NCBI GenBank assembly: GCA_017601245.1
Contig: JAFNJB010000053.1
Location: 16,501-80,500 of the forward strand
Direction: 5' to 3'
DNA: 64,000 nucleotides
Source of the DNA: Candidatus Brockarchaeota archaeon
Lineage (GTDB): Archaea > Thermoproteota > EX4484-205 > JAAOZP01
This document shows positions 9,446 to 53,331 of this stretch, in pieces. A program made the translations under genes and the position numbers. The notes beneath the pieces were generated by a model. It was not told the DNA's origin. It worked only from the letters and a program-made list of their open reading frames with translations, and did not search any database. Within the stretch, counting starts at the first letter, position 1; every line of letters starts with the position of its first letter.

Positions 9446-9451
9446 CTCCTC

Positions 9452-10682: not shown

Positions 10683-10683
10683 T

Positions 10684-14863: not shown

Positions 14864-14871
14864 GGTGTTGA

Positions 14872-15627: not shown

Positions 15628-16919
15628 TTAATATGGTTGATAGGACAATAGTTTATGATTACATAAGCAGGGTTGAGGGACAGGGATCTCTGGAAGTTAC
15701 CATTTCAAACGGTGAAGTAAAGGATGCAAAACTCCAGATATTTGAAGCTCCAAGGTTTTTCGAAGCTTTTCTAAGAGGTAGGAGGGCTCTTGAACTTCCC
15801 GAGTTGACTTCAAGAATATGTGGCATATGCCCAATTGCGCACGCCATAACGGCGGCTAAGGCTGTAGAAAATGCTCTCGAAATATCATTGGATGAGAGGA
15901 CTGTAGCATTAAGGAAGGCGCTAGCCCTATCGGGGATGATGCAGAGTCATGCTCTTCACATATACTTCCTTGCAGCACCAGACTACCTCGGCTATCCGAG
16001 TGCGATCGCAGCCTCTAAAGATTTATTGGATGTTGTGAAAAGAGGATTCAGGCTAAAGAGAATAGCAAACATGGTTTCTGAATATATAGGTGGAAGAGTA
16101 GTACACCCCGTCACGCTTACCGTAGGAGGCTTTACGAGGAGTCCGCCTGCTGAAAAACTTGACGAGATTATTAAAGCCTTAGATTCTTCTCTTCAAGATG
16201 CTTTTGAAACAATTTCTCTCGTTTCAAACTTCAAATATCCAGAATTCGAATCAGACCATATTAATATTGCGCTTTCAAACAAAGGAGAGTATGCTGTAAC
16301 CGAGGGGGTTGCTAAAACAAGCTCTGGGGAATATTTCGATGGTAGAGATTACAGGAAGTATGTGAATGAAGAGCAAGTTCCATATTCAAATACTAAAAGG
16401 TCGATTTTTCGCGGAGGAAGCTCCTTTGAAGTAGGTCCTGTTGCGCGCTTTAACCTCAACTATGACTTCTTATGCGACACAGCTAAGGAGGCTGCTGAGA
16501 AATCCGGCGTAAGGCCTCCTCTTAAAAACCCGTTTAAATCCACAATAATAAGGGCAATAGAGATAATTCAGGCAATAGAGGAGATGAAGAGCATACTTAA
16601 AGAGGGTGTAAACGTTCCTCCCCCCCAGAAACCAAAGCTCCGTCAAGGTATGGGGGCTGCTTTAACGGAGGCTCCTCGAGGGCTCTTGTATCACTCTTAT
16701 ATCCTGGACAAGGAGGGTAGGGTTTCAAAGGCGGACATAGTGACTCCGACTGCTCACAATTCTTGGAGAATAGAGAGGGACGTTTACGAACTAGTTCCTT
16801 CAATAGCTCACTTAGATGACAATTCCCTCAGAAGCCTCCTAGGCATGCTTGTAAGGTCCTACGACCCCTGCATCTCCTGCTCTGTCCACGCTTTCACTGT
16901 AAGGCTCATAAGGGAGTAG
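15624..16919 (+). CDS. hydA: [NiFe]-hydrogenase large subunit (HydA / alpha-like, group 3b-type)
   Basis: RICGICPIAH near the N terminus and DPCISCSVHA at the C terminus. 431 aa. Confidence 0.9.
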   Translation: MINMVDRTIVYDYISRVEGQGSLEVTISNGEVKDAKLQIFEAPRFFEAFLRGRRALELPELTSRICGICPIAHAITAAKAVENALEISLDERTVALRKALALSGMMQSHALHIYFLAAPDYLGYPSAIAASKDLLDVVKRGFRLKRIANMVSEYIGGRVVHPVTLTVGGFTRSPPAEKLDEIIKALDSSLQDAFETISLVSNFKYPEFESDHINIALSNKGEYAVTEGVAKTSSGEYFDGRDYRKYVNEEQVPYSNTKRSIFRGGSSFEVGPVARFNLNYDFLCDTAKEAAEKSGVRPPLKNPFKSTIIRAIEIIQAIEEMKSILKEGVNVPPPQKPKLRQGMGAALTEAPRGLLYHSYILDKEGRVSKADIVTPTAHNSWRIERDVYELVPSIAHLDDNSLRSLLGMLVRSYDPCISCSVHAFTVRLIRE

Positions 16920-17462
16920 ATAATCCTGTTCAATCGCAACGTCTTTTAAAACCCCTGAGTTTATCACAGCCTCAAGTATGGCTTTAACAACTCCATTAAC
17001 TGCCTTGAGACACTCGCCTGAAACTTTTTCGCCTAAATCGAATTTCTCAACGCCTATTCCGAGAATTTTTATATCCGTCTCTAAGGGTTTTCCAAAAGCC
17101 TCTAAGAGTAACGGAATAGGTATATCGTGCGTAGAGGCGGGTACGTAAGAATCCAGGTCTGTTGGATCTAGAATTGCCAACCTCTCTCCATTGGGGAAGG
17201 CGTCTACGATTAGAAGATGCGAGGGGTTCTTCTCAAAAGCGTAATCGATACATGAGTCGATTGAAGCCCCACATTCAATAGCTTCAAATTTTTCACTGTT
17301 GAAAGGCTTCAAGGCTCTGGCTACGAGTAGGCCAGCAGCATCATCGCTTCTCAACTCATTACCAATGCCTAAAATTATGAAAAGCCTTGCACCAATCAAC
17401 CATTTTTTTAGAAAACTCTGTAATTCTTCAATCGAACAGTAATACACGTCCGTTTTTAACAT
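16839..17462 (-). CDS. hydrogenase maturation endopeptidase (HycI/HybD family)
   Basis: ILGIGNELRSDDAAG matches the GxGNxxxxDDGxG protease motif. The ORF carries about 20 extra N-terminal aa, so the true start is uncertain. Its 3' end overlaps the hydA 3' end convergently by 81 nt. Confidence 0.75.
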   Translation of the reverse strand: MLKTDVYYCSIEELQSFLKKWLIGARLFIILGIGNELRSDDAAGLLVARALKPFNSEKFEAIECGASIDSCIDYAFEKNPSHLLIVDAFPNGERLAILDPTDLDSYVPASTHDIPIPLLLEAFGKPLETDIKILGIGVEKFDLGEKVSGECLKAVNGVVKAILEAVINSGVLKDVAIEQDYLLPYEPYSESVDRAGDAGVVGPYKHA

Positions 17463-17560: not shown

Positions 17561-17845
17561 TTGATAGAGTTGAGTGAGGAAAAGATTTACGTGGGGGATG
17601 TGAGGCATTTCTTTTCGAGGATTAGCGTTGCAGTAATCGACCTTATCGGAGAACTTAAAGTTGGCGATGAGATACTTATCCAGGGTAAGACGACCAATTT
17701 AAGACAAAGGGTTGATTCTATGGAGATAGAGCACAAGAAGGTTGAAGTGGCTCCGCCGGGGAGCTCCATAGGCTTAAAAACCGTCGACAGGGTTAGAGAG
17801 GGTGATAGGGTATACGTTATTAGGGTTTCAAGCCAAGCTCCCTAA
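17561..17845 (+). CDS. small beta-barrel protein resembling EF-Tu domain II (stand-alone)
   Basis: GELKVGDEILIQGKT...VDSMEIEHKKVEVAPPGSSIGLKTVDRVREGDRVYV follows the GTP_EFTU_D2 pattern, in 94 aa. Confidence 0.4.
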   Translation: MIELSEEKIYVGDVRHFFSRISVAVIDLIGELKVGDEILIQGKTTNLRQRVDSMEIEHKKVEVAPPGSSIGLKTVDRVREGDRVYVIRVSSQAP

Positions 17846-18791
17846 GCCTTGCTTCAATACTTAGCTTAACAGCCTCCCTGCTATTATACTTCGGCCTCCA
17901 TCCCGTTGCCTTAATCTTACTTATATCCAGGTTCATCAGCTTAACGTCGCCAACCCATCCTCTACCACCCTCCACGCCCCCGGTGAAAACCTTCTCAACG
18001 CCTCTTAGACCCATTGACTCTATTGTCATGTCGGCTATTTCAGATACGGTGATCCAGTCTTCTGAACCTATATTATAGATCTCGTAACAGAGGTCTCCGA
18101 AACTTTTTAAAACATGCATCATGGCTTCAATACAGTCTTCAATCCAAACGTAAGACTTCCTCTGAGTACCGTCTCCGAGTATTTCAAGCCTCTTCGGATT
18201 CTCCATAAGCTTGTTTATGAAATCGTATATTACACCGTGGGTAAGCCTAGGGCCAACGATGTTAGCAAGCCTAAAGGAGACTCCTCTCATCCCAAAAGTA
18301 TAGCAGTAGGAAGAGACCAGGCTTTCAGCGGCGAGTTTAGCCGCACCGTATAGGGATATTGGTTTCAACGGCCCATAGTCTTCGGGTGTTGGGAGTTTCA
18401 AAGCATCCCCATAGACTGTTGAAGAAGATGCGAAAACGAAGAATTTCGCTTTAATCTTCCTAGCGTATTCGAGAATGTTGAAAGTCGCAGCAATGTTTTC
18501 CTGGAAATGTACCGATGGTGTTGTTTCCCTAACATCCGGGTTGGCAGCCATGTGGAAAATATAATCGACGCTTTCCAATTCCCCTGTTAGGTCGATAGTC
18601 TTAGCATCTCCAATTATTATCTTGAGTTTACCGGTTTCAAAAGCCTGTTTAATATTATCAAAACTGCCCGTTGAGAAGTTGTCTAAAACGGCTACTTCCC
18701 AACCTTCCTTTAAAAGCCTGTCTACTAAATGGCTTCCGATGAATCCTGCGCCTCCAGTTACCAGTGCAGAAGGCAAAATAATCCACCTCAA
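17820..18791 (-). CDS. NAD-dependent sugar epimerase/dehydratase (UDP-glucose 4-epimerase-like)
   Basis: TGGAGFIGSHLVDRLL Rossmann motif and catalytic YGAAK (YxxxK), in 323 aa. Confidence 0.85.
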   Translation of the reverse strand: MRWIILPSALVTGGAGFIGSHLVDRLLKEGWEVAVLDNFSTGSFDNIKQAFETGKLKIIIGDAKTIDLTGELESVDYIFHMAANPDVRETTPSVHFQENIAATFNILEYARKIKAKFFVFASSSTVYGDALKLPTPEDYGPLKPISLYGAAKLAAESLVSSYCYTFGMRGVSFRLANIVGPRLTHGVIYDFINKLMENPKRLEILGDGTQRKSYVWIEDCIEAMMHVLKSFGDLCYEIYNIGSEDWITVSEIADMTIESMGLRGVEKVFTGGVEGGRGWVGDVKLMNLDISKIKATGWRPKYNSREAVKLSIEARLRELGLKP

Positions 18792-20035
18792 CTCGTCGGA
18801 ATAGATGAAACACCTTCTCCAATGCCGGTGGTAAATACGCTTGTAGCGCCAGCATCCATGAATGCTCTTTCAACCCTAGAAGCATCCTCATCTCCTCTTA
18901 CTAAAGCCAATAATGAGCCGCCCATGCCCGCACCAGATATTTTGACACCTAAAGCACCTGCCTCGAGGGCTGCGTTGCGCATTTTCTCGAGCTTCGGATG
19001 ACTGACTTCATAGAGGTCGCGTAGGAAAACATGTTGCATGTTAACTATCTCACCCAATGCTTCCAACCAGTCTCCAGTAGGTTTTAAACCCAATTCTTCT
19101 AAACTAGTCTCCCTAACCCGCCTATACTTAAGGATTTCAAGAGCTGTTTCAGTAGTCTTCTGCATTCTAAGCGTGAAGAGAATTCTGTCTGCAAGCTTAC
19201 GGGGCAGAATGTTTAGATAATTCTCCAAGTCTTCCTCTTTTAGAAGCCTCCAATCAACACTAGCGTAATCGCCGCTGAGTATTTTCCGCAATTTTTCTGG
19301 AAGTTGGGCCTCTCTTAGGATTTTAATTGCATTGTTCAACTCTTTTTGTCTAACCGGATGGATCTCGGCTGTGCTATGTCTAATACCTGAATCCGCTACT
19401 ACAAATCTAATGCCTTCTCCGTTAAACTCCTCTATGCTTAAAACCGGTTTAAACTCGATCTTTATTACTCCGCCATAAGAGGAAGAATACTGGTCTAGCC
19501 TTCCACAGGGTATTCCCATGATATCGTGTTCGGCTTCATAAGCTAGCTCAGCCAACTCCATCTTGCTTAAGCTCAAGTTAAGAAGCCTCATATACATCGC
19601 CGCTAGAGAAACATGGAGTGCTGCGCTACTCGCTAGACCGGAAGCTACAGGTATCTCGCTATCGACGTAAATCGCTAGGCCAGTAATAATCTTCCCGTAT
19701 TTTCTAGATATGAGCATGTGTAGGGAACGGAAATAGTTTCCAAACCATTTTCCCTCTCGCAACTCTACTTTACTCGATTTGAAAACATCCTCGCTTTCAA
19801 CACCCTCCCTCTCTAGGCTTAACGATTTAACCCTTACAGTATCCGGTTCGCTTATTCTTGAGCATACGGTAAAGGTTCTTTTCTCAATGGCTACGGGTAC
19901 GACGGGGAGCATTTTGTAATCCTGATGCGTATTAAGAAAGTCTACGCGGGCGGGAGCTGAGGAGAGGCAAAGTATGTTTCCATTTTCAGCTTTTGCTCTT
20001 TCACAAAGCCTTTTAGCAAGTTGATTCAACTGCAT
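18788..20035 (-). CDS. GHMP kinase, galactokinase-like
   Basis: APARVDFLNTHQDY matches the galactokinase N-terminal signature (GRVNLIGEHxDY). The GHMP ATP motif PVASGLASSAA and a C-terminal KISGAGMGGS are also present. Confidence 0.7.
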   Translation of the reverse strand: MQLNQLAKRLCERAKAENGNILCLSSAPARVDFLNTHQDYKMLPVVPVAIEKRTFTVCSRISEPDTVRVKSLSLEREGVESEDVFKSSKVELREGKWFGNYFRSLHMLISRKYGKIITGLAIYVDSEIPVASGLASSAALHVSLAAMYMRLLNLSLSKMELAELAYEAEHDIMGIPCGRLDQYSSSYGGVIKIEFKPVLSIEEFNGEGIRFVVADSGIRHSTAEIHPVRQKELNNAIKILREAQLPEKLRKILSGDYASVDWRLLKEEDLENYLNILPRKLADRILFTLRMQKTTETALEILKYRRVRETSLEELGLKPTGDWLEALGEIVNMQHVFLRDLYEVSHPKLEKMRNAALEAGALGVKISGAGMGGSLLALVRGDEDASRVERAFMDAGATSVFTTGIGEGVSSIPTS

Positions 20036-24930: not shown

Positions 24931-26142
24931 CTACTGTGTTTTAAGCGCTTCTACTCCAGGAAGTTTTTCACCGGAGAGATAGCTGATTAAAGCTCCTCCC
25001 GCAGTGCTTACAAAGCCTATTTTATCGTAAACACCTGCTTTTTCAAGTGCTGAAATCGAGTGTCCGCCGCCTACTACGGTGAATGCTTTCGAAGAAGTTG
25101 CAGCCTTATAGAGCTCTATCGTCCCTTTTGCAAAGGCTTCTTCTTCGAAAACTCCAACGGGTCCATTGAATACTACGGTGTTTGCATTACTGATTTCCCT
25201 AGAGTATACTCTTATTGTTTCAGAGCCAATATCTTTCAACGGGTATTCAATTGGCAGTTGCGAAACCATGTATTCAACTCTGTCACCGTTAATATCTGCA
25301 GCATAATCGTATGGTAGCATTATTCTTTGAGAATGCTTGTTGAGTATTTTAGAAGCGTTTTCCCTAAACTTATCTAGGCCCTTCTCTTCTATGAGCTTGG
25401 AATTAACGCTTCCAAGCCTGAAACCTGCAGCTTCATGGAAAACTTGGGCAATCATGCCTCCAAGTAAAACCTTGTCTGCAATTCCCCTGTCTAAAACGTT
25501 CTCGATAACTTTGAACGTCTCCTTAGCCTTCGCCCCTCCCAATACGTAGAGACAGGGCTTTGAAGGATTGTCTACGACTTTCTCGAGAGCTTTCAATTCT
25601 CTCTCCATAACTCTCCCTGCTGCTGACGGCAGTACTGCTGTAAAACCTATGATAGAAGCGTGGGCCCTGTGGGATGCGGAGAAAGCATCGTTTACAAAGA
25701 AATCTGCTAATGGGGCTAATGCTGAAACCAATGCTCCTTTCGCATGCTCCTCAGCCGTCTTAGTCTCAGTTTCCTCGTCAAGCATCCTCACATTCTCGAG
25801 TAGTAGTGCTTCGCCAGGCTTCAACTCCCTAATGGCATTTATAGCGTTGACTCCAACGATGTCGCTAACATACTTAAGGTTCTTAACATACTTTAGCATG
25901 GCCTTATAATGCCTGCTGAAATCTGTGAAATCAGGATCTCCCTTCCTGCCCTGGTGTCCGAGTATCACCACCTTAGCATTCTTTCTTAAAAGCTCGTTAA
26001 TAGTCTCGGAATGCTCTCTTATCCTAGAATCGTCTATGATCTCTAAGGTTTGAGGGTCTAGTGGAGAATTTATGTCGACCCTAAGGATGACGGTCTTGTT
26101 GTTAAAGTCAAAATCATCCAGGGTCTTGAACTTTAAAGCCAT
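24931..26142 (-). CDS. pgk: phosphoglycerate kinase
   Basis: N-terminal TVILRVDINSPLD and a C-terminal glycine-rich ATP site (VVGGGHS...STAGGALI), in 403 aa. Confidence 0.9.
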   Translation of the reverse strand: MALKFKTLDDFDFNNKTVILRVDINSPLDPQTLEIIDDSRIREHSETINELLRKNAKVVILGHQGRKGDPDFTDFSRHYKAMLKYVKNLKYVSDIVGVNAINAIRELKPGEALLLENVRMLDEETETKTAEEHAKGALVSALAPLADFFVNDAFSASHRAHASIIGFTAVLPSAAGRVMERELKALEKVVDNPSKPCLYVLGGAKAKETFKVIENVLDRGIADKVLLGGMIAQVFHEAAGFRLGSVNSKLIEEKGLDKFRENASKILNKHSQRIMLPYDYAADINGDRVEYMVSQLPIEYPLKDIGSETIRVYSREISNANTVVFNGPVGVFEEEAFAKGTIELYKAATSSKAFTVVGGGHSISALEKAGVYDKIGFVSTAGGALISYLSGEKLPGVEALKTQ

Positions 26143-26655: not shown

Positions 26656-28692
26656 ATGGAGCAGGAAAAACAGGAGGTCTATAAAGAGTTTAAGGAATAT
26701 ATCATACCTCCCTCTTGGAAGGACAGGGTTTGGGATATAGAGGATTTTAAGAAGTTTCATGAAGAGACTGTTAAGGACAAGGAGTCGGTCGAGAAATGGT
26801 GGGTTAAATGGGCTGAGCAATTACCGTGGTTTAGGAAATGGAGTAGGGTTCTCGACGACAGCAACCCACCTTTCTACCGCTGGTTTGTGGGTGGAGAGAT
26901 TAACCTTGCCTATCTCTGTACGGATTGGCAGATTGAAAAAGGCAGGAAGAATAAGCTTGCAATAATATGGGAGGGGGAGCCGGTTAACGAGGCTGGCGAG
27001 CCGAAGGAAGTTAGAAAGTTTACTTACTACGATCTCTACAGGATATCTAACAGGATTGCTTCTGCACTCAGGGATAGGCTGGGTGTTAGGAAGGGTGAGA
27101 TCGTAACTCTCTACCTTCCGATGATTCCTGAACTGCCTTTCTACATGCTTGCCCTCCAGAGGATTGGTGCGAAACACAGTATTGTCTACAGTGGCTTTAG
27201 CGCCGTGGCCTTGGCTGATAGAGTTGAAGCAGCCGGGTCGAGGATAATCGTCACGGCAGACGGCCTGTACAGGAGAGGAAGGATAATAAGGCTTAAGGAA
27301 GTTGTCGATGAGGCTATAAAAATACTGGAAGAAAGAGGACACCGGGTTGAGAAGGTCATCGTAGTCAAGAGAACCGATAGGACAGACGTGCCTTTTAACG
27401 AAGCTAGGGACATATGGCATACCGATTTCTTAGCGGGTATACCTGAGAACGTCAGAGTCGATGCTATTCCTCTACCGTCTGATGATTTCTCCTACATACT
27501 CTACACGTCTGGTACGACCGGTGCTCCCAAGGGTTCTCAAGAGTCTATAGGAGGCTATGCTGTAGGCCTCTACGCAACTATGAATATGATTTTCGACGTT
27601 AAGGATGACGACATCTATTGGTGTACTGCCGACATCGGCTGGGTCACAGGGCATTCCTACATAGTTTACGGTCCATTGATGACTGGGTTAACTTCAGTAA
27701 TGTACGAGGGCGCGCCCGACTACCCCGGCCCGGATAGGTGGTGGAGTATTATAGAGAGGTATGGCGTTACCATATTCTACACGACTCCGACAGCCATAAG
27801 GATGCTTATGAAATTCCCAGACGAGCTTGTTAAGAAACATGATCTCTCTACGGTTAGGATAGCTCACTCAGTCGGTGAACCGATCAACCCTGAGGCGTTC
27901 AGGTGGTTGTATTCAAACGTGTGTCGTAACGATGCCGTTTGCTCTTCTACTTGGTGGATGACTGAGACCGGACATATATTGACGGGGCATCTCCCAGGGT
28001 TGGGTAAGATATATCCGCTTAAGCCTGGTACAAACGGATACACGCTCCCGGGCGTTAAGGCGGATGTTATTGATGAAGATGGTAACTCCTGCCCGCCGGG
28101 CGTGAGGGGGTACTTCGTCATAAAGACCCCGTGGCCTGGAATGTTGATGACGCTGTATAAAGATCCTCAGAGATACGTCGACATCTACTGGAAGAGGTGG
28201 GAGGGATGCTTCTGGACTGGCGACTATGCTGTTAAGGATCAAGACGGCTATTTCTGGATACTTGGAAGGGCTGACGACGTTATCAAGGTGGCTGGTCACA
28301 GGATAGGTACTGCAGAGGTTGAGTCTGCTATGATCATGCATCCTGCTGTTGCCGAGTCTGCATGCGTCGGCAAACCCGATGAAGTGAAGGGAGAGATACC
28401 GATGATATTCACCGTTTTGAAACACGGGTATAATGCTAGTCCAGAGCTCGAGCAGGAGTTGAAGATGCATCTGAGGAAAACAATCGGCCCCCTGGTGGCT
28501 TCAGATGCCATAATAGTCTTCATCAACGCTGTTCCAAAAACTAGGAGCGGTAAGATAATGAGAAGGCTCCTCAGAGCAGTGGTTGCGGGCAAGCCCCTGG
28601 GAGACATAACGACTTTAGAAGATGAGACTGCAGTGAAGGAAGTTGCAGAAGCATACAACATGATTAAGGAAGCGGTGGAGAAAAGGAGATAG
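26656..28692 (+). CDS. acs: acetyl-CoA synthetase (AMP-forming)
   Basis: N-terminal ACS-specific region (WWVKWAEQLPWF...GGEINLAYLCTD), AMP-binding motif YTSGTTGAPKG, YWCTADIGWVTGHSY, and a C-terminal TRSGKIMRR. 678 aa. Confidence 0.9.
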   Translation: MEQEKQEVYKEFKEYIIPPSWKDRVWDIEDFKKFHEETVKDKESVEKWWVKWAEQLPWFRKWSRVLDDSNPPFYRWFVGGEINLAYLCTDWQIEKGRKNKLAIIWEGEPVNEAGEPKEVRKFTYYDLYRISNRIASALRDRLGVRKGEIVTLYLPMIPELPFYMLALQRIGAKHSIVYSGFSAVALADRVEAAGSRIIVTADGLYRRGRIIRLKEVVDEAIKILEERGHRVEKVIVVKRTDRTDVPFNEARDIWHTDFLAGIPENVRVDAIPLPSDDFSYILYTSGTTGAPKGSQESIGGYAVGLYATMNMIFDVKDDDIYWCTADIGWVTGHSYIVYGPLMTGLTSVMYEGAPDYPGPDRWWSIIERYGVTIFYTTPTAIRMLMKFPDELVKKHDLSTVRIAHSVGEPINPEAFRWLYSNVCRNDAVCSSTWWMTETGHILTGHLPGLGKIYPLKPGTNGYTLPGVKADVIDEDGNSCPPGVRGYFVIKTPWPGMLMTLYKDPQRYVDIYWKRWEGCFWTGDYAVKDQDGYFWILGRADDVIKVAGHRIGTAEVESAMIMHPAVAESACVGKPDEVKGEIPMIFTVLKHGYNASPELEQELKMHLRKTIGPLVASDAIIVFINAVPKTRSGKIMRRLLRAVVAGKPLGDITTLEDETAVKEVAEAYNMIKEAVEKRR

Positions 28693-32785: not shown

Positions 32786-33814
32786 TTAGGCTGTTAAAGC
32801 GTTCTTAAGCTCTATCAAAGACTTGTCTACAAGCTTCGTCTCTGAAACAGCTTCGGAGAGGTCGACGCTAACTATTTCGGTACCTCTCAATGCAACCATT
32901 TTGCCAAAGATTCCTTTCCTCACCAATTCTATAGCAGCATAGCCCAGTCTTGTGGCGAGAACCCTATCGAAAGCAGTCGGTGACATTCCTCTTACTATAT
33001 GGGCGGGAGCAACAGCCCTAGTCTCAAAGCCAGTTGCTTTCTCTATTTCCTTAGCTAGGAATTCCCCTATCCCGCCTAGGTATACATGTCCATATTGGTC
33101 GACTTTAGTATCCTTAGTTATCGGACCCTTATAGTCAGCTATTAAAGCCCCTTCTGCAACAACTATTGTTAAACTACCCTTCCCCTCAGCCTTCTTCTTC
33201 TTAACGAATTCTACGACATCACTTATCTTAAAGGGTTCTTCGGGTATGAGTATTAAATCAGCGCCGGCGGCAAGGCCGGAGTATAAAGCTATCCAACCCG
33301 CATGCCTACCCATTATTTCCACGACCATTATCCTATCCATTGCTTCCCCCGTCTTCTTCAAAGACTCTATTGCTTCCATAGCGGCGTTGACAGCAGTGTC
33401 GAAGCCGAAGGTATAATCTGTACCTTTAAGATCATTGTCTATTGTCTTAGGGACCCCAACGACTTTCAAACCTGCTTCATGAAGCTTCTTGGCTGCAGTA
33501 AGGGTATCGTCTCCACCTATGGCTATCAAAGCGTCTAAACCGAGCTTCTTAAAGTTCTCTATACACTTTTTCATAGTAGCCTCATCCTTAACAGGATTGG
33601 TCCTAGAGGTTTTTATTACAGTCCCCGCTTCACCGATCTTATCCTCCAGGTCTTTATAGCGTAAGGGGACAGTATCCATGTTGAGAAGCCCAGCCCAGCC
33701 GTATCTTATGCCGATGACTTCGATTCCATACTGTTCAGCCATTTTCAACACTGCTCTTATCACAGCGTTAAGCCCTGGAGCATCGCCTCCTCCCGTTAGA
33801 ACTCCCACCCTCAT
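32786..33814 (-). CDS. 6-phosphofructokinase, PFK-A family, with PPi-type signature residues
   Basis: VLTGGGDAPGLNAVIRAV, IAIGGDDT (GGDD rather than GGDG) and VPKTIDNDLKGTDYTFGF (Lys before TIDND). Both diagnostic positions are the Asp/Lys of PPi-PFKs. Confidence 0.85.
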   Translation of the reverse strand: MRVGVLTGGGDAPGLNAVIRAVLKMAEQYGIEVIGIRYGWAGLLNMDTVPLRYKDLEDKIGEAGTVIKTSRTNPVKDEATMKKCIENFKKLGLDALIAIGGDDTLTAAKKLHEAGLKVVGVPKTIDNDLKGTDYTFGFDTAVNAAMEAIESLKKTGEAMDRIMVVEIMGRHAGWIALYSGLAAGADLILIPEEPFKISDVVEFVKKKKAEGKGSLTIVVAEGALIADYKGPITKDTKVDQYGHVYLGGIGEFLAKEIEKATGFETRAVAPAHIVRGMSPTAFDRVLATRLGYAAIELVRKGIFGKMVALRGTEIVSVDLSEAVSETKLVDKSLIELKNALTA

Positions 33815-33863: not shown

Positions 33864-35147
33864 TTACCTTTGGAGTATTGAAGCCTTGCAGGCCACCAGG
33901 GGGATTAAGAGCTCGTCTAGCGTCAACGACCCGTGGGCCCCTGCCTTAACGAACTCGGGCTCGGTTCTCTCTTTCAAATCATAGTGGAAGATTAGCCTCT
34001 CCTCTCCTTTCGACAATGCCACATAATCCCCTACCCTATCTGAGACACATGGATTAGCTTCCCCAAGGCCGAAAACCCCCTTTTTGAAGAGCTCTAAAGA
34101 TTCGAACAAGACGATTTCTCTAATGGCCTTACGGAAAATATTCTTGAACCCTTCAGATTCGTCCTTTACGTAGAAGTATGCCGCCCTGGATTCTCCCGCA
34201 GGTGGCATCACCAGGTGCTTGGTTATCTGCTTTAAGTCTTCCAGTTTAATCGCCTTATCGTCGCTTACTCTCGATTGGCCGTGGTCTGAAGTTATCAATA
34301 GTAGAGTCCTATCAGCGATTTTCAGGGGGACTTGGTTTATGGCTGTTTTCAAAAGCGTGAAAGTATTCAAGAGCTCCAGCTCAGCCTCTTGGCTAAAAGG
34401 CCCGTAATGGTGAGACTGAGCATCAAAACCGTCCCAGTAAGCCATTACGAAATCCGTCTTACCATCTTTCATAAGCCTGGCCAGGTTTGTTGCGAAGTCT
34501 ACAGTCGTTAAAGCTGGAACTATCTCAGAGTCTCTATAAAGTATTGTAGAGAGACCGCTATTCCTAATACCATATCTTATTAGAGTCTTAGACCTGAGCC
34601 CAGACTCCCTGAGCCTCTGGGTTAGAACCTTAACTCCCAAGAGCCTCTCGGGGCTCATGCCGAGTTCGAAAATCCTATTCCTCCTCTCATCGTTCACAGG
34701 ACTGAGAGATATCATATTAACCATTGAACTAAGCTCCTTCATGAATAAGACGTAGGCAACTATGCCGTGTTCTTGAGGTGTTAAACCAGTGTTGAAGCTT
34801 GTTAGGGCTGTTGAAGTCGTGGATGGAAATACGGAGGTTAAAACCCTGAAACACGACCCGTTTTTCAAAAACAGCTTCTCGAGGAATCCTCTAAGAGCTT
34901 CTGAGGATTTTACGAATACGTTAAAACCCATCGCGTCTATGATTATTAGTATAATCCTATCAACACCCTTGAATTCTGAGAAAACATCTTCTTTAAGAAA
35001 TCTTCCCTTAACCTTAGCTCCCATGAACTTTGCTAAGCTGTTTGATAAATTCGGAAGCGAGAACCCATCGTATTTTGGTATGAAGAGTCCTGGTGAAAGC
35101 TTCCGTAGGCGAAGCTCTTCAATAGCTTCTTCAAATATAGAAGCCAT
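33864..35147 (-). CDS. alkaline-phosphatase superfamily enzyme, nucleotide pyrophosphatase/phosphodiesterase (NPP, PF01663-like) type
   Basis: Metal site IIIIDAMGFN, nucleophile region FPSTTSTALTSFNTGLTPQEHGIV (NPP consensus FPxxTxPNHxTxxTGxxPxxHGI), and LLITSDHGQS (DHG metal site). 427 aa. Confidence 0.7.
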   Translation of the reverse strand: MASIFEEAIEELRLRKLSPGLFIPKYDGFSLPNLSNSLAKFMGAKVKGRFLKEDVFSEFKGVDRIILIIIDAMGFNVFVKSSEALRGFLEKLFLKNGSCFRVLTSVFPSTTSTALTSFNTGLTPQEHGIVAYVLFMKELSSMVNMISLSPVNDERRNRIFELGMSPERLLGVKVLTQRLRESGLRSKTLIRYGIRNSGLSTILYRDSEIVPALTTVDFATNLARLMKDGKTDFVMAYWDGFDAQSHHYGPFSQEAELELLNTFTLLKTAINQVPLKIADRTLLLITSDHGQSRVSDDKAIKLEDLKQITKHLVMPPAGESRAAYFYVKDESEGFKNIFRKAIREIVLFESLELFKKGVFGLGEANPCVSDRVGDYVALSKGEERLIFHYDLKERTEPEFVKAGAHGSLTLDELLIPLVACKASILQR

Positions 35148-40832: not shown

Positions 40833-42191
40833 ATGATAAGAAATTTGCTTAAAATATTATCCATTGCTGCAGTGCTTTTAATCGGAATCGTCATAAGACA
40901 ATTTTTAGAATCCCTATGGCTGGTTTTAACGGGTTCGGATTCAAATGGTCTTTCAAGCCTAGTCTCACTCATTACTATGATTTTTTCTTCAATACTGCTT
41001 CTGCCTATTAAGCAAGAGAATAAAGCGGGGATTATAGGGTTGTTCAAAGAAGTCTTAATCTTCCTATTCATCTGGATTGTAACATCATTATTTGCAGCCT
41101 TCTTACATCAACCTAAGCATGCTTCAATAGGCTTCATAGCTGCGTCTTTATACTTATTCTCTAGGCTAATCATTAATCGAAGCATCGGGCATAGGATAAT
41201 GCTTGAGCTTAAAGAATACTCCAATATACCTAGGGGCAGTACTATACTCATGTCTGTTGCACCTGTCCCAAGGGTCTTCATTACACAGGGTTTTGGGTTG
41301 AGAATTATTTTAGAAATCCTAAAGGGTAATGCTGGGATTGCTAATGTAATCAATGAAGAGGTCTTTCTAAAATCGTTCAGGGAAATTAAAGTTGTTGAGC
41401 TTCAGGGAACTCTAGCATCCTTTGTAAAGGCAGTGGCGGAGAATTGGAACCGGGAAGTAGCGATATTCTGCGAAGCAAAGCTTAAGGGAAGTCTTTTCAA
41501 AATCAGAGTTAAACTCGCTTCTGACAGTACTCGGGCTATAGAAAGTATACTTAATGGATTTTCAAAACTAGATGGTATGGAAGATTTAGAATGGGCCATT
41601 GAAAAATGGTCTCTCTTAAAACCGTGTGTTAAGCCGATTAGACTAGTTGACAAAAGTGTTTTTCTACAGCCGGAAAATGTTCCCGAGCGTCTTTTTATTG
41701 TGGGAGAGTTAGAAGAAGTTGAAAAGGTTGCATTACAGGTTTGCTTTTCCCAGTTGAGAAGCAATTCGAGAATCGTCATAATCAATGGCGAGGAGGACTC
41801 TTCTTTTGAGAATAGGGTTGGGAAAATGCTTGAGGCTAAGGGTTTCAAACCCTATGGCAATGAGATTAAAACGTTCAGAACTAGTAGGGGAGCAGAGGTA
41901 ATACTTATGAGGAAAGCTGATTTGAAAGAAAGGATTGTCAACAAGTTTTTGAGAAAGCCTATTGTTGCACTATGGTTGAGAAACTTTTCAGAAGACATTC
42001 AACTGAAAGCTCCGTTGAGGGTTTTAACGTGCAACATGCCTGAGGCTAATCCGGCTTTAGAAGCGGACGGCATATTGCTCTTAAGCCCGAGCGAGAAGAT
42101 CTTGGAGTGTTTCATACCTGAGAGATACGGGCTTTCGCTTCGAGGTAGGATGGTAATGGTCTCAGCTAAGGGGGTGAGTATATTAGCATGA
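40833..42191 (+). CDS. membrane protein: 4 N-terminal TM helices plus a ~330-aa cytoplasmic domain of unknown function
   Basis: 452 aa. TM helices at roughly residues 5-25, 41-60, 67-92 and 97-119. No recognisable catalytic motif. A 4-nt overlap with the next gene follows. Confidence 0.5.
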   Translation: MIRNLLKILSIAAVLLIGIVIRQFLESLWLVLTGSDSNGLSSLVSLITMIFSSILLLPIKQENKAGIIGLFKEVLIFLFIWIVTSLFAAFLHQPKHASIGFIAASLYLFSRLIINRSIGHRIMLELKEYSNIPRGSTILMSVAPVPRVFITQGFGLRIILEILKGNAGIANVINEEVFLKSFREIKVVELQGTLASFVKAVAENWNREVAIFCEAKLKGSLFKIRVKLASDSTRAIESILNGFSKLDGMEDLEWAIEKWSLLKPCVKPIRLVDKSVFLQPENVPERLFIVGELEEVEKVALQVCFSQLRSNSRIVIINGEEDSSFENRVGKMLEAKGFKPYGNEIKTFRTSRGAEVILMRKADLKERIVNKFLRKPIVALWLRNFSEDIQLKAPLRVLTCNMPEANPALEADGILLLSPSEKILECFIPERYGLSLRGRMVMVSAKGVSILA

Positions 42192-43423
42192 AGAGCATTC
42201 GACCAAGAGTGAATGAAGCGTTCGAACTCGTGGGCAAAGTGGGAATAGCCGGATGGAATTTCAGGAGGGTCCTCGTATTCCTTCTTTCAAAGCTTCTGAA
42301 GGATTACAAGATGATACTCCTAGACCTGAGTGATGAATTCAGTTGTATTACGAGAATAAACGGGGCAAAGTATTACAACGTCTTCGAACATAGCATAAAC
42401 CCTATCAAACCGTCTTCTCAAGAGAGAGTTGAACAATATGTAGAGTCGCTAGTGGAGATAATTGATTACTGTCTTGGAGTTTTTAACATGAAGAGCATTA
42501 TTACGAAAGCTTTTATTAACAATATTTCATCGTCTGAAACTACAATACCTGAAATAATATCCAAACTGGATTTCGAGAGTCCTGAAGGAGGATTATCGAT
42601 CTACTCTCCCTTGGAACCATTTACATTCGGCACTTTAAGAAGAGTCTTCGGGAGGCGAGAAGAATTGGACTTTAACGAAGTGTTAGATACTGGTATAGTT
42701 TTCGACCTGTCGGGCCTTCCAACAGCTTCTTCAAAAGCACTGGCAGTCTTAATAGTATTGAACAAGCTCTCGCATATGGTGCCCAAACACCCCACAGTCA
42801 TAGTTATTACCTACCCCAGTATTGTTTGGCCCAAGAATAGGAGATGCGATGCAGCCAAGCTACATGTTGAACAAGTTCTCATAGACGATTTGGAGAGGAA
42901 AGGCTTCATAATGGTTTTTGCTGAAAAGATGTTTTCAGAACTGTCTGATAAGATCGTAAAAGAGCTTGATGCCATAGTTTTCTCACCTCCCTCTGAGGCT
43001 CTAGACCCTTGGAATCCCTGGGGTTTATACACTAGGCTGGAGAATGAAGTCTTAGATTATCCAGCAGTGGTTTTAAACAGGAGGGGCGAGGTCAAACCCC
43101 TCATGTTCCCCTCAAGCATCTTGTTGAAACCCTTGAGTAAGGAGGAGCGTGAAAAGCTCAAGCCTAATCTAAGAGTCTTCAAGGAATATGATAGGTTGAA
43201 AGAAATTCTCAAGGAAGACTATGAGCTTGGGCTTAGAATAATAGACATGGTTAAGGAGTTAGGTGGCAGGGCTGTTTTAAACAGGCTGGTCGAAGAAATA
43301 AGGTCGAAAATAGGGGCCGGCGGGCTTAGGGCGCTTGCCACATTGTTGAGGCACAGTTATTTGAAACAAGTTCAAGAAGGGGGTGAGCAATACCTCGTCC
43401 TTAATGGGGGTGACGGGGGATGA
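42188..43423 (+). CDS. hypothetical protein; possible P-loop-NTPase-like fold with a degenerate Walker A (HerA/FtsK- or secretion-ATPase-like)
   Basis: 411 aa. LVGKVGIAGWNFRRVLVFLLSKLL occupies a Walker-A-like position but lacks GK[ST]. It is followed by KMILLDLSDEF (acidic box), and later IVFDLSGLP...PTVIVITYP in a Walker-B-like position without D/E. No intact GxxxxGK[ST] occurs anywhere. The fold assignment is a hypothesis. Confidence 0.45.
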   Translation: MKSIRPRVNEAFELVGKVGIAGWNFRRVLVFLLSKLLKDYKMILLDLSDEFSCITRINGAKYYNVFEHSINPIKPSSQERVEQYVESLVEIIDYCLGVFNMKSIITKAFINNISSSETTIPEIISKLDFESPEGGLSIYSPLEPFTFGTLRRVFGRREELDFNEVLDTGIVFDLSGLPTASSKALAVLIVLNKLSHMVPKHPTVIVITYPSIVWPKNRRCDAAKLHVEQVLIDDLERKGFIMVFAEKMFSELSDKIVKELDAIVFSPPSEALDPWNPWGLYTRLENEVLDYPAVVLNRRGEVKPLMFPSSILLKPLSKEEREKLKPNLRVFKEYDRLKEILKEDYELGLRIIDMVKELGGRAVLNRLVEEIRSKIGAGGLRALATLLRHSYLKQVQEGGEQYLVLNGGDGG

Positions 43424-44280
43424 GGAGGATTCTCACCGGGATAAAATCGTTAGACGAGCTTACTGGAGGATTTCCCACTGGGGTTTCAAACCTGGTTTAC
43501 GGCAGTCCTGCAACGGGGAAGACAAGTCTTTCAATGACTCTCGTAGCGGAGGCTCTTAGAAATGCGAAGGATAGAGATGTTGTCATAGCTGTCTTAACTG
43601 AAGGCTGGGACATGGACCGTTTAAAAACAATATGTGCCAAGAGGAATGTTAAACAAGATGCTTTAAACAGGGTTAAGACGTATGAAGCCAATAGCTTCGG
43701 AGAGCAACATAAGGTGATAACTGAAGTAATGCCGAGAGATATTGAAGAGAACGATTGGGTCCCAACGCTGATAATCGTAGACTCTCTCGTACCACACTAC
43801 CATGCTCAATTGCTCAACACGCCTCTTCAACACTTGGCTTCTAAAGCCAGAGAATTTCAGGGAAGACTGTCTCTAGAAATAAACACTCTGGTGAAAATCT
43901 CTTCTGGATACGATTCACTATTATTAGTAAACAGCTGGCGGCGTAGTAGTGCTGGCCGAAGCTTTCAGGAGAAATGGAGGAAGGACGTCATAAACGGTAT
44001 TAATAGTAACAATGTTCTGATAGATCCTGAAGCGGGCTTTGGCTCTAGAGAATTTGATGTCATAGGTGGGCAGCATCTAGTCTACATGAGCAAGACCGTA
44101 TTAAGAATGGTTTCGACAAGCCTTGGTGAGAACATTAAGGCTGTTATCTTAGAGAAGGCTCTTTCAAGGCCGACGATGTTCTGTTGCTTGGTGAAAATAT
44201 CTGAAGCAGGTATTGAAACTCATGAGGGTAAGCCCGCTCCTGTTAGTGAAGTGATAAGAAGAGAGGTTATTGAAGACTAA
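43420..44280 (+). CDS. RecA-superfamily ATPase, KaiC/RadB/aRadC (RadA paralog)-like
   Basis: GIKSLDELTGGFPTGVSNLVYGSPATGKTS (the RadB/KaiC-type N-terminus with Walker A) and Walker B LIIVDSL. 286 aa. 4-nt overlap upstream and 1-nt overlap downstream. Confidence 0.8.
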   Translation: MRRILTGIKSLDELTGGFPTGVSNLVYGSPATGKTSLSMTLVAEALRNAKDRDVVIAVLTEGWDMDRLKTICAKRNVKQDALNRVKTYEANSFGEQHKVITEVMPRDIEENDWVPTLIIVDSLVPHYHAQLLNTPLQHLASKAREFQGRLSLEINTLVKISSGYDSLLLVNSWRRSSAGRSFQEKWRKDVINGINSNNVLIDPEAGFGSREFDVIGGQHLVYMSKTVLRMVSTSLGENIKAVILEKALSRPTMFCCLVKISEAGIETHEGKPAPVSEVIRREVIED

Positions 44281-48609: not shown

Positions 48610-49602
48610 ATGTCGCATTATGCTAGGGGAAGAATAGTGATGAACATCGCAGTAGTAACCTCTGGAGGAGACGCTCCCGGTATGAACGCTGCTATCAGGG
48701 CTGTTGTCAGAGCCGCCTCCGGTCAAGGTTTAAGAGTAATAGGGGTTGAAAAAGGCTTCTTAGGTTTAATAGAAAACCTGTTCAGGCCCCTTACTCCGAG
48801 GGATGTTAGCGGGATAATAAACACTGGCGGTAGTATTCTAAAATCCAGCAGGTGCGATTTATTCAAGACTCCGGAGGGATTGGAAAAAGCCTCTGAGAAC
48901 CTGAAGTCTTGGAAAGTAGATTGGGTTATTGCCCTAGGCGGAGACGGGTCCATGAGGGGGGCTTTAAGTCTTAGTAAGGTGAGTGGCATACCTGTCACGG
49001 TCATAGCCTCATCGATAGATAACGATATCGCTGGAATAGATGAGACGATAGGATTTGACAGCGCAGTGAATACTGCAGTGGAAGCAATAGACAAGATTAG
49101 GGATACCGCAGTAACATACGACAGGGTTTTCATCGTTGAAGTCATGGGTAGGAATCGCGGCTTCCTGGCGCTGGAGGTTGCCTTGGCTTCAGGCGCCGAG
49201 TTCGCAGTAATACCTGAACACCGTATTTCAATAGAAGAAATTGGGAAGAGAATAAGGCAAATGGGAGAGATAGGTAAGAAGTCGAGCATAATAGTGAAGG
49301 CTGAAGGTGCCATGGGGGATCCCTTCCAAATGGCTTCACAATTAAGGAGATTAACTGGTTACGACTTAAGAGTGACTGTCTTAGGATACATCCAAAGAGG
49401 GGGCGTGCCTACTGCAAGATCCAGGAACCTCGCATGTCTATTCGGAAACCATGCTGTGAAACTGGCAATAGAAGGTAAGAAGAATAGGCTCGTGGGTCTT
49501 AAAGACGGTAAGGTAGTTGATTTGGATATTGAGGAATCATGTAGTAGCATTAAGAAAATAGACGAGGATAAATATGAATTGGTCAGCATACTGGCTGTTT
49601 GA
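48610..49602 (+). CDS. 6-phosphofructokinase, PFK-A family, with ATP-type signature residues
   Basis: VVTSGGDAPGMNAAIRAVV, IALGGDGS (GGDG), and ASSIDNDIAGIDETIGF (a small residue, not Lys, before IDND). 330 aa. Confidence 0.85.
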   Translation: MSHYARGRIVMNIAVVTSGGDAPGMNAAIRAVVRAASGQGLRVIGVEKGFLGLIENLFRPLTPRDVSGIINTGGSILKSSRCDLFKTPEGLEKASENLKSWKVDWVIALGGDGSMRGALSLSKVSGIPVTVIASSIDNDIAGIDETIGFDSAVNTAVEAIDKIRDTAVTYDRVFIVEVMGRNRGFLALEVALASGAEFAVIPEHRISIEEIGKRIRQMGEIGKKSSIIVKAEGAMGDPFQMASQLRRLTGYDLRVTVLGYIQRGGVPTARSRNLACLFGNHAVKLAIEGKKNRLVGLKDGKVVDLDIEESCSSIKKIDEDKYELVSILAV

Positions 49603-53295: not shown

Positions 53296-53331
53296 CTCGC
53301 AACGCTTTGAAAGAACGGCTTATTAAGAACA

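Follow-up and report, generated by a model that had tools for sequence, protein, structure and literature searches.

The pyrophosphate-dependent phosphofructokinase (PPi-PFK) of Thermoproteus tenax (TTX_1277), reportedly the subject of work by Siebers et al. in 1998, is an archaeal, group III, 'short' PPi-PFK-A. Presumably it also is a member of the TIGR02483 subfamily, as is the gene designated here as ORF1. Both enzymes are archaeal and of minimal size (337 aa in T. tenax, 342 aa for ORF1). The T. tenax enzyme is non-allosteric and reversible (PMC12203962, PMC12965863), and it possesses an aspartate, D102, at the position of Gly104 (PMC11609450), as too does ORF1 in the form of Asp103. In T. 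tenax this PPi-PFK is coupled with PPDK, the usual partner in PPi-based glycolysis, which in Brockarchaeota is undetected (PMC8065059 supplement). For T. tenax, an ATP-type PFK-A partner is not reported in the sources used, whereas ORF1 has such a partner, i.e., ORF2.

Also an archaeal PFK-A, and deposited as pyrophosphate-dependent, is the enzyme of Ca. Prometheoarchaeum syntrophicum (9cir/9cis/9cit, released in 2025). Among PPi-type structures, 9cir is the best match to the ORF1 model (TM 0.89-0.92, 38-40 % identity), with phmmer E-values of 1e-61 versus ORF1 and 3e-32 versus ORF2. The 9cir chain nevertheless is longer than ORF1, consisting of 424 aa with extra segments, and by sequence it is outscored, versus ORF1, by the PFK of Bacillus stearothermophilus (BsPFK). 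More generally, reviews describe from Archaea only PPi-PFK-A, ATP-PFK-B, and ADP-PFK-B, with the archaeal PFK types of Table 3 of a 2025 Biol Rev review including no ATP-PFK-A (PMC12965863). The ATP-PFK of Desulfurococcus, which the original prediction had taken to be a PFK-A, is in fact a PFK-B, that is, of the ribokinase superfamily (PMC12965863).

Bacteria are known that possess both donor types. Amycolatopsis methanolica thus has two PFK isoenzymes, for ATP and for PPi (AMETH_4515 / AMETH_4897), which are 35.4 % identical (PMC5640789), this being a group III PPi-PFK along with a separate ATP-PFK, while ORF1 and ORF2 are 35 % identical as proteins. A. methanolica is a RuMP methylotroph as well, and the RuMP pathway is predicted also for Brockarchaeota (PMC8065059 supplement). 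It is a bacterium, however, and its ATP-PFK resides within an HGT-acquired RuMP cluster (PMC5640789). Clostridium (Acetivibrio) thermocellum similarly has ATP- and PPi-PFK isoenzymes (Cthe_1261 and Cthe_0347), both of which are expressed (PMC10339645). Its PfkA is a PEP-inhibited ATP enzyme found alongside a PPi-PFK, which may be compared with ORF2 plus ORF1, and there the same donor rules (positions 104 and 108) and the same 220-230 insertion are seen as with ORF1 (PMC10339645). The C. thermocellum Pfp, on the other hand, belongs to another, longer PFK-A group than does ORF1, and its bacterial host displays a PPDK-linked PPi glycolysis. The novelty that the original prediction implied, in describing PPi- and ATP-type enzymes as each coming from a different organism, consequently is not sustained. 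The underlying biochemistry, the rule by which signature residues indicate the donor, PPi-PFKs from Archaea, and organisms with two PFKs all are already established. Since precedents exist for either enzyme type and for their coexistence, the finding described here is sound but incremental, adding detail on one lineage and no new mechanism.

As residue numbering reference, BsPFK (3pfk/6pfk) is used here, with correspondences taken from phmmer alignment. By that numbering, Asp at 104 plays a role in donor choice (PMC12203962, PMC11609450, PMC10339645), PKTIDXD represents a PPi signature (PMC12203962), and an insertion at 220-230 is a feature of PPi-PFKs (PMC10339645). The group III subfamily has seen more than one donor switch, includes the S. 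coelicolor ATP-PFK, and is sister to the ADP-PFK-As. As overall similarity within group III cannot decide the donor, the donor call made here rests on signature residues.

ORF1 and its donor-signature residues

The window, by which is meant the whole of the 64,000-nucleotide stretch analysed, comes from an uncultured hot-spring archaeon of the Brockarchaeota. ORF1 is located on its minus strand (32786..33814; 342 aa, ATG start) and encodes a PFK-A of the group III or 'PFK_mixed' subfamily, a predicted PPi-dependent 6-phosphofructokinase (EC 2.7.1.90). Membership in the PFK-A superfamily is seen as a full-length PFK domain scoring above gathering, with Pfam PF00365 matched over model positions 1-277/277 at 351 bits (cut-off 30.9). 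The top NCBIfam model is TIGR02483, PFK_mixed, which is matched over 1-325/325 at 425.0 bits, i.e., 5.5 bits short of its cut-off of 430.55. The AF2 model of the protein has a pLDDT of 93.8. In a bootstrapped NJ tree of 135 sequences, ORF1 falls within a Lys124-bearing group III clade (96 % bootstrap), with the ORF2 family and BsPFK outside, and together with its Bathyarchaeia homologues it forms a clade of 100 % bootstrap, all members having Asp104 and Lys124.

ORF1 residues 2-223 align gaplessly with BsPFK chain residues 3-224. Asp103, as found within the translated GGDD motif (33506..33517, minus strand), is thereby at position Gly104, and Lys123, the PPi-binding lysine of the translated PKTIDND motif (33431..33451, minus strand), is at position Gly124. 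An offset from these positions, which would have undone the original prediction of a PFK-A with PPi-type residues at the diagnostic sites, thus does not exist: Asp103 and Lys123 coincide exactly with Gly104 and Gly124, and that prediction of what is a full-length PFK-A is borne out. Thr124, Asp126, and Asp128 in turn correspond to catalytic Thr125, Asp127, and Asp129, while position 108 is occupied by alanine (Ala107).

Conservation of these residues was assessed among 123 homologues (63-100 % identity) from Brockarchaeota and Bathyarchaeia. Asp104 and Lys124 both are kept in 123/123, from which it follows that the pattern is not one of chance. Position 108 is Val in 106/123 and Ala in 17/123; T125, D127, D129, R162, M169, G170, R171, E222, R243, and H249 do not vary; and R252 is present in all but one (122/123). 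At the allosteric site, R154 and K213 vary across the 123, and the substitution E187D is invariant. E187 is the residue which governs PEP/ADP control, with E187D abolishing PEP sensitivity (PMC10339645). All 11 top-scoring single-domain representatives of 50 % clusters, as found upon searching with ORF1, have D-V-K at 104/108/124.

Relative to ATP-type PFKs, ORF1 carries as well a 25-residue insertion at the 220-230 site, LIADYKGPITKDTKVDQYGHVYLGG (residues 224-248; 33071..33145, minus strand), a predicted beta-hairpin for which the AF2 model shows strands at 236-238 and 244-246. The alignment with BsPFK is interrupted there (223/249), that with ORF2 shows a 23-residue gap, and the site as a whole is spanned by 31 residues in ORF1 versus 8 in ORF2. 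An insertion of about 30 aa here is common to all Lys124-group representatives and is missing from GGG-type enzymes as well as from ORF2. Four of the four published PPi hallmarks consequently are present in ORF1: Asp104, a non-glycine at 108, Lys124, and the 220-230 insertion, the second and the last of which the original prediction had left unnamed. Lys124 on its own is non-discriminating, since 46 of 102 representatives have Gly104 together with Lys124; one of this kind, with G-I-K, shares 49 % identity with ORF1.

Among the matches listed in a contig search, actinomycete GGDD-type enzymes, including from Pseudonocardiaceae, are 53-58 % identical to ORF1, and none is from Thermoproteus, though the patterns employed favour GGDD enzymes, so that these are organism names rather than an unbiased distribution.

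Reversibility and the metabolism of the lineage

Regarding donor specificity, in vivo reversibility, allostery, and division of labour, I infer from these sequences that ORF1 quite probably is a reversible, non-allosteric PPi-PFK and ORF2 a regulated ATP-PFK. As a minimal-size group III PFK-A, ORF1 would catalyse F6P + PPi <-> FBP + Pi. Asp103 would occupy what in ATP enzymes is the alpha-phosphate/ribose pocket, thereby excluding ATP and fixing the register in which PPi binds; Ala107, for which most relatives have Val, would replace the second of the cleft-opening glycines; Lys123 would form a salt bridge with PPi; and the inserted beta-hairpin would complete the site, with catalytic and F6P-binding residues intact. 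Because the PPi reaction operates close to equilibrium and the allosteric site has lost much of its residue pattern, ORF1 most likely is both unregulated and bidirectional. An ability to link glycolysis to either ATP or PPi, as originally proposed, is reasonable given a PPi-type ORF1 and an ATP-type ORF2. To describe the step as irreversible, however, is mistaken for PPi-PFK, the reaction of which is reversible, and for that reason the likely consequence is bidirectionality, i.e., glycolysis as well as gluconeogenesis, beyond mere choice of donor.

The description paper of the Brockarchaeota lists K21071 (ATP/PPi PFK) along with K00850 (pfkA), leaving the donor unassigned (PMC8065059 supplement), and nothing specific on donor assignment for Brockarchaeota or Bathyarchaeota PFKs was found in the literature searched. 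In the same lineage, FBP aldolase/phosphatase is seen in 1/15 MAGs, the membrane PPase HppA is reported, and soluble PPase, a potential drain on PPi, is found in several MAGs (PMC8065059 supplement). The soluble PPase, like the undetected PPDK, counts against a PPi-linked ORF1. The lineage probably is fermentative or methylotrophic. Within it, ORF1 would serve glycolysis and, given that near absence of FBP aldolase/phosphatase, the gluconeogenic FBP-to-F6P step as well. It is possible, and is put forward here tentatively, that in Brockarchaeota and Bathyarchaeia an allosterically gated ATP-PFK-A of bacterial style runs in parallel to an ungated, reversible PPi-PFK that replaces the missing FBPase. 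If so, then both the direction of the upper EMP pathway and its ATP yield would depend on which paralogue carries the flux, and for these two groups it could no longer be held, as it currently is, that PFK escapes allosteric control in archaeal glycolysis.

ORF1 might instead be PPi-dependent but act mainly in pentose-phosphate metabolism, phosphorylating S7P or dephosphorylating SBP so as to bypass transaldolase, with glycolytic flux left to ORF2. Cellulolytic clostridia offer precedents for such a role of PPi-PFK, as do Entamoeba and Ca. Liberibacter. The C. thermocellum Pfp, for example, uses S7P as well as F6P, a function in which ATP-PFK cannot replace it (PMC10339645), and a bifunctional PPi-PFK is reported from a transaldolase-less Liberibacter. 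Consistent with this as well, transaldolase (K00616) is found in only 3/15 Brockarchaeota MAGs, a non-oxidative pentose-phosphate pathway having been drawn nonetheless (PMC8065059 supplement). Incompleteness of MAGs can, however, explain an absence of transaldolase, the characterised S7P-active enzymes are of other PFK-A groups, and there is no known sequence determinant of S7P use, the alignment in the C. thermocellum paper being inconclusive (PMC10339645). An S7P role moreover is compatible with, rather than exclusive of, a role involving F6P and FBP. That ORF1 serves mainly in this manner therefore is judged unlikely.

The ATP-type paralogue and database names

The ORF2 reading frame (48610..49602, plus strand) is 330 aa long, and is predicted to encode an ATP-dependent and allosterically regulated group I PFK-A. 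As nearly all of its homologues are of about 320 aa, the true start probably is Met11, at 48640, which would yield 320 aa. Like ORF1 it belongs to the PFK-A superfamily (PF00365, 325 bits, model 1-276/277; cut-off 30.9), it scores above cut-off with NF002872 (360.8 bits versus 253), and its alignment with BsPFK residues 3-316 is single and contiguous (282 bits). The original prediction was of an ATP-type paralogue at 15 kb distance. That stands as to ORF2's presence and its Gly104, which is Gly113 of a GGDG motif (48937..48948, plus strand) in which Gly117 is at position 108. At position 124 the ASSIDND motif (49006..49026, plus strand) supplies Ser134 rather than the canonical glycine, with Ser135 then at position 125.

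Among 121 homologues of ORF2, which are 72-100 % identical across approximately 24 Brockarchaeota clusters and 52-58 % identical in many Bathyarchaeia, Gly104 is found in 120 and Gly108 in 119. All 121 share D127, D129, R162, E222, R243, and R252, and 115 have R171, while either Thr or Ser is found at position 125. Position 124 always carries a small residue (103 with Ala, 18 with Ser), and never Lys. The effector-site residues R21, R25, R154, and K213 are found in 121/121 and E187 in 118/121, while position 211 varies. ORF2 thereby shares with the group I PfkA of B. stearothermophilus and E. coli Gly104, Gly108, R21, R25, R154, E187, and K213, but differs from these in Ser124, in Ser125, in Tyr249, in the non-conservation of R211, and in being archaeal. 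The ATP-PFK of A. methanolica, by comparison, is of a 50-kDa group rather than of the group I to which ORF2 belongs. With Gly104, Gly108, a small residue at 124, and no insertion, ORF2 would represent a classical group I ATP-PFK-A, and, because R21, R25, R154, K213, and E187 are kept, it probably provides an irreversible, allosterically gated glycolytic route. Given that no archaeal ATP-dependent PFK-A has been characterised, ORF2 is the less-precedented gene of the pair. If ATP-dependent, then ORF2-type enzymes would be the first such PFK-As from Archaea.

From a different perspective, ORF2 might be a paralogue in decay or one put to another use, with a different sugar phosphate as substrate or a different donor, rather than a regulated ATP-PFK. 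It is non-canonical at 124, at 125, at 211, and at 249, where Tyr replaces His (as it does in 72/121 homologues), Ala or Ser stands in for Gly124 in all 121, and against TIGR02482 (PFKA_ATP) it reaches 343.9 bits, below the equivalog cut-off of 371.35. These substitutions, however, are conservative, i.e., a small residue at 124 and Ser for Thr at 125. The ORF itself is intact and its family well conserved in both archaeal groups, and the catalytic residues along with the glycines of the ATP cleft are retained. Decay or re-purposing thus is decidedly unlikely, and a regulated ATP-PFK remains the preferred reading of ORF2.

With regard to ORF1, NCBI and JGI names for it and for its Bathyarchaeia relatives are "6-phosphofructokinase" and, for many, "ATP-dependent 6-phosphofructokinase". 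Taken at their word, such names would have ORF1 use a nucleotide as donor despite its signature, whether ATP or, as with the cyanobacterial ADP-PFK-As, ADP. The PGAP name derives from a match to NF002872 (399 bits, above the cut-off of 253), and the subfamily does contain users of ATP and of ADP at similar overall identity. InterPro and NCBI family names nonetheless are known to mix donors (PMC12203962), and all characterised ATP- and ADP-PFK-As have Gly104, whereas Asp104 presents a steric and electrostatic block of the alpha-phosphate site. In Entamoeba, substitution of that Asp with Gly turns a preference for PPi into one for ATP (PMC12203962, PMC11609450, PMC10339645). Nor does either gene bear the ADP-PFK-A signature, i.e., Gly104 kept with Gly108 changed to Ile (Shen et al. 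2024), ORF1 having Asp104/Ala108 and ORF2 Gly104/Gly108. A nucleotide donor for ORF1 is, as a consequence, highly unlikely, and the "ATP-dependent" label is predicted, from these residues, to be a mislabel. Should ORF1-type enzymes indeed use PPi, then, for two widespread groups of uncultured archaea, metabolism as now reconstructed would show too low a glycolytic yield, by 1 ATP per glucose, and would lack also an FBPase-free gluconeogenic route. Bathyarchaeia, it may be added, are a very abundant sediment lineage.

Gene order and neighbouring genes

ORF1 and ORF2 are found 15 kb apart on the same contig. Independent assemblies place the ORF1 locus on 22 contigs, and in a diverged relative an ORF1-type gene (P0007) and an ORF2-type gene (P0146), differing at the protein level by 11 % and 26 %, respectively, likewise are separated by about 15 kb on one contig, with gene order identical. 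Going by record names, the two types are found together as well in one Bathyarchaeia MAG, B63 (P0099 and P0198). That ORF1 and ORF2 might come from different organisms, with the window a chimera of assembly or binning, is an idea that stems only from its metagenomic origin, no evidence in favour having been found, and is effectively refuted by the contiguity of the window, by the 22 contigs from independent samples, by the unchanged pair in the diverged relative, and by GC content that is uniform over the window (0.442 and 0.445 in the bins of the pair).

Neither ORF1 nor ORF2 lies within a sugar-metabolism operon. Upstream of ORF1, across a 49-bp gap, is an AlkP-superfamily 'Phosphodiest' gene which is adjacent in all Brockarchaeota loci. 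A functional operon consisting of the two was rejected, as Bathyarchaeia have CTP synthase upstream instead. Two further ORFs were considered as candidates for PPDK or membrane H+-PPase, which together would have made of the window an island of PPi-based glycolysis, but both proved to be other proteins: that of 870 aa (3925-6537) is an ABC solute-binding protein and that of 678 aa (26656-28692) an AMP-forming acetyl-CoA synthetase. The latter (26656..28692, plus strand; TIGR02188, 852.5 bits, cut-off 724.95) is a PPi-producing enzyme encoded 4 kb from ORF1 and syntenic in loci L001-L010, its tie to ORF1 being one of proximity only. A phosphoglycerate kinase gene (24931..26142, minus strand; Pfam PGK, 389 bits), 6.6 kb from ORF1, is syntenic across all of the Brockarchaeota loci examined (L001-L008).

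Donor residues of the two phosphofructokinases

The window carries two full-length PFK-A genes, both found exactly where the original prediction had placed them: ORF1 (32786-33814, minus strand, 342 aa; Pfam PF00365, 351 bits) and ORF2 (48610-49602, plus strand, 330 aa; 325 bits), each covering the whole Pfam model. NCBI already lists the two proteins, as MBO3769853.1 and MBO3769875.1, under the name 'ATP-dependent 6-phosphofructokinase' in MAGs of 'Candidatus Brockarchaeota archaeon' / Thermoproteota. ORF1 owes that name to its passing the broader subfamily model NF002872, so called; among NCBIfam models it scores best with TIGR02483 'PFK_mixed', over whose full length it reaches 425 bits, 5.5 bits below cut-off. 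Such family names mix both donors, according to a 2025 superfamily review (PMC12203962). The ORF1 locus is seen on 22 independently assembled contigs, Jinze hot-spring sediment being among the sources. GC content varies little along the window, from 0.40 to 0.48, and is 0.442 and 0.445 in the bins that contain the PFK genes. ORF2 has in-frame ATGs at 48610, where the deposited 330-aa protein starts, and at 48640; as nearly all homologues are of about 320 aa, which fits the latter, Met11 is probably the true start. A TTTAAA box is present near 48571, by the ORF2 start region (48610-48642).

In ATP-dependent PFK-As the motif is GGDG and in PPi-dependent ones GGDD, whose Asp sits where ATP would place its alpha-phosphate and fixes the register of PPi; PPi enzymes also show PKTIDXD, with a Lys that forms a salt bridge to PPi (PMC12203962). 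The T. tenax enzyme has the GGDD Asp as D102, and replacing this Asp with Gly turns the Entamoeba enzyme from preferring PPi to preferring ATP (PMC11609450). At position 108, a residue larger than Gly shuts the adenine/ribose cleft, and in PPi enzymes a beta-hairpin is inserted between residues 220 and 230 (PMC10339645). Ile108 with retained Gly104, a signature proposed in 2024, is that of ADP-dependent PFK-As (PMC11609450). Numbering here is that of Bacillus stearothermophilus PFK (BsPFK), i.e., the E. coli convention.

Translation of ORF1 gives GGDD (33506-33517, minus strand) and PKTIDND (33431-33451, minus strand). As its phmmer alignment to BsPFK is gapless over residues 2-223, with Asp103 on Gly104 and Lys123 on Gly124, these motifs are in true register, and the PPi-type Asp and Lys, checked for an offset, show none. 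ORF1 thus displays all four PPi features: Asp104, Ala108 and Lys124, together with 25 inserted residues (224-248) in which an AlphaFold2 model (pLDDT 93.8) predicts two strands (236-238 and 244-246). ORF2, which covers BsPFK residues 3-316 as one uninterrupted alignment, gives GGDG (48937-48948, plus strand) and ASSIDND (49006-49026, plus strand), and has the ATP features: glycines at 104 and 108 and a small residue at 124, with the insertion absent. Its description as an ATP-type paralogue therefore holds at positions 104 and 108, but position 124 is Ser, departing from the textbook Gly. That ORF1 is PPi-dependent and ORF2 ATP-dependent is, as a joint prediction, likely.

Conservation and relatives

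These residues were followed through 244 retrieved homologues aligned to BsPFK. The ORF1 family (n=123; 63-100 % identity, Brockarchaeota and Bathyarchaeia) has Asp104 and Lys124 throughout (123/123 each), Val (106) or Ala (17) at position 108, and invariant T125, D127, D129, R162, M169, G170, R171, E222, R243 and H249, with R252 in 122. The ORF2 family (n=121) has Gly104 in 120 and Gly108 in 119; position 124 is occupied by Ala (103) or Ser (18) and in no member by Lys, and His249 is Tyr in 72. We take R21, R25, R154, E187 and K213 to be the effector site, after the Evans-laboratory structures. That assignment also rests on PMC10339645. Every member of the ORF2 family has R21, R25, R154 and K213, while 118 of 121 retain E187; actual allosteric regulation at these residues is a prediction. 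In the ORF1 family E187 is Asp in all 123, a change which in E. coli PfkA (E187D) abolishes PEP sensitivity (PMC10339645), R25 is Lys in 97, and positions 154 and 213 vary; residues that bind allosteric effectors in bacterial enzymes have, as judged from the alignment, drifted here.

When 1.84 billion 50 %-cluster representatives were searched exhaustively, 102 single-domain relatives emerged. The 11 best-scoring (46-52 % identity) are all D-V-K at positions 104-108-124. Remoter ones are mixed (46 G-x-K, 31 D-x-K, 6 D-x-Q and 6 GGG, of 102), and 17 of the 46 G-x-K are G-I-K, the ADP signature. One of the latter is 49 % identical to ORF1, so it is the signature, rather than overall identity, that must decide the donor. 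Such Gly104-Ile108-Lys124 relatives (these 17 of 102, and L024, a locus of bacterium isolate Yes70-20) are 40-49 % identical to ORF1, which suggests that ADP-type PFK-A may extend beyond cyanobacteria and alphaproteobacteria. A variant with Asp104 and Gln124 (D-V-Q or D-A-Q: P0269, P0318, P0322, P0335, P0354, P0313) found no mention in the PFK literature examined. The top-scoring representatives P0245, P0246 and P0250, proteins of 730-2620 aa with multiple PFK-like stretches, as many as 6, may have arisen by fusion or tandem duplication or be artefacts of gene calling.

A neighbor-joining tree (135 sequences, 331 columns, 100 bootstrap replicates) unites ORF1 with Brockarchaeota and Bathyarchaeia in a 100 % clade, Asp/Lys throughout, nested in a 96 % clade of Lys124- and insertion-bearing enzymes within which deeper branching lacks resolution; the ORF2 family and BsPFK fall outside. 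Four Asp104/Gln124 representatives adjoin the archaeal clade with weak support. Among the matches listed from species-representative genomes, the GGDD enzymes from outside Archaea that come nearest are of Actinomycetota (53-58 % identical to ORF1), Acidobacteriota and Omnitrophota, with Methanomicrobiales and Thermoplasmata also carrying GGDD enzymes. The Actinomycetota include Pseudonocardiaceae, the family of A. methanolica, source of a characterised PPi-PFK. Among solved structures, a PPi-PFK from an Asgard archaeon, Ca. Prometheoarchaeum syntrophicum (9cir), fits the ORF1 model at TM 0.89-0.92 with 38-40 % identity; its sequence is much nearer to ORF1 (E 1e-61) than to ORF2 (3e-32).

Pairing, precedent and proposed roles

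Archaeal PPi-PFK-A has been known since 1998, from T. tenax. A crystal structure of one now exists (9cir). ATP- and PPi-PFK isoenzymes also coexist in C. thermocellum (PMC10339645) and in A. methanolica, where they are 35.4 % identical and the ATP-PFK gene lies within a RuMP cluster (PMC5640789). As both archaeal PPi-PFK-A and isoenzyme pairs are thus documented, the finding is, on good support, a functional re-annotation within known enzyme types; the original prediction stands as observation, its interpretation being supported only in part. Its placing of a Desulfurococcus ATP-PFK in the PFK-A type is contradicted by a 2025 Biol Rev review, which classes that enzyme as PFK-B and has no archaeal ATP-PFK-A in its Table 3 (PMC12965863). 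ORF2, as a predicted and apparently allosteric archaeal ATP-type PFK-A, would be the modestly novel angle. In Brockarchaeota MAGs K21071 is seen in most and K00850 in one (PMC8065059 supplement).

ORF1 and ORF2, at 35 % identity, are ancient members of separate subfamilies rather than products of recent duplication. Both families are widespread in Bathyarchaeia, with Bathyarchaeota MAG B63 holding one PFK of each type, by name. The diverged relative GCA_038827035.1 has both types on one contig, about 15 kb apart in the same gene order (89 % identity for the ORF1-type gene, 74 % for the ORF2-type), and another relative has matching flanks. The gene neighbourhoods reveal no sugar-metabolism operon around either. 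ORF1 neighbours a Clp1-like kinase gene and an AlkP-superfamily gene, an adjacency that is lineage-specific only: the latter (33864-35147, minus strand, 427 aa; PF01663 Phosphodiest, with no NCBIfam assignment and no evident signal peptide) is separated from the start of ORF1 by 49 bp in all Brockarchaeota loci, and Bathyarchaeia lack it at this upstream position. Phosphoglycerate kinase and AMP-forming (PPi-releasing) acetyl-CoA synthetase genes lie 4-7 kb from ORF1, a proximity that does not by itself establish a link. On one side ORF2 borders GGPP synthase and isopentenyl-phosphate kinase genes, on the other hyp genes.

ORF1 would be a reversible, non-allosteric PPi-PFK, akin to the T. tenax and Dictyoglomus enzymes of minimal size (337 and 345 aa; PMC12203962), and would serve glycolysis and gluconeogenesis alike (cf. 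PMC12965863, PMC10339645); ORF2, effector site intact, would be an ATP-PFK providing an irreversible, regulated glycolytic step. A gluconeogenic need is supported by FBP aldolase/phosphatase being in only 1 of 15 Brockarchaeota MAGs, while a full 'PPi glycolysis' is weakened since PPDK was not detected and soluble PPase occurs in several; membrane PPase HppA is also reported (PMC8065059 supplement). As an alternative or additional role, ORF1 might phosphorylate S7P in a pentose-phosphate pathway poor in transaldolase, an enzyme detected in 3 of 15 MAGs (PMC8065059 supplement); C. thermocellum offers a precedent (PMC10339645). That this is the main role of ORF1 we consider improbable.

Other gene clusters in the window

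Two adjoining, divergently oriented [NiFe]-hydrogenase clusters occupy 8009-17462. The first (8009-12842, minus strand; large and small subunits, NuoE/F/G-like diaphorase subunits) is predicted to be a Hox-type or bifurcating hydrogenase. Its neighbour (12999-16919, plus strand; Fer4_22 protein, FAD/NAD-binding subunit, small and large subunits) is predicted to be sulfhydrogenase-like, and is followed by a HycI-like maturation protease (16839-17462). Hydrogenase maturation genes lie directly downstream of ORF2 (49708-55406), i.e., HypF (49708-51984), HypD (52198-53295) and a HypE-like AIR-synthase-family protein (54405-55406); in the relative at locus L011, an ABC-transporter cassette sits between PFK gene and HypF. 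At 40833-44280, three genes whose stop and start codons overlap encode proteins of 452 and 411 aa, neither with a Pfam or NCBIfam match, and then a 286-aa KaiC/RadA-like ATPase, a trio kept in every Brockarchaeota locus retrieved (L001-L003, L008, L011). At 17820-20035 a GHMP kinase that resembles galactokinase but scores under the NCBIfam cut-offs for galactokinase and mevalonate kinase alike adjoins an NAD-dependent sugar epimerase, a pair which may provide a Leloir-type sugar entry route within the window.
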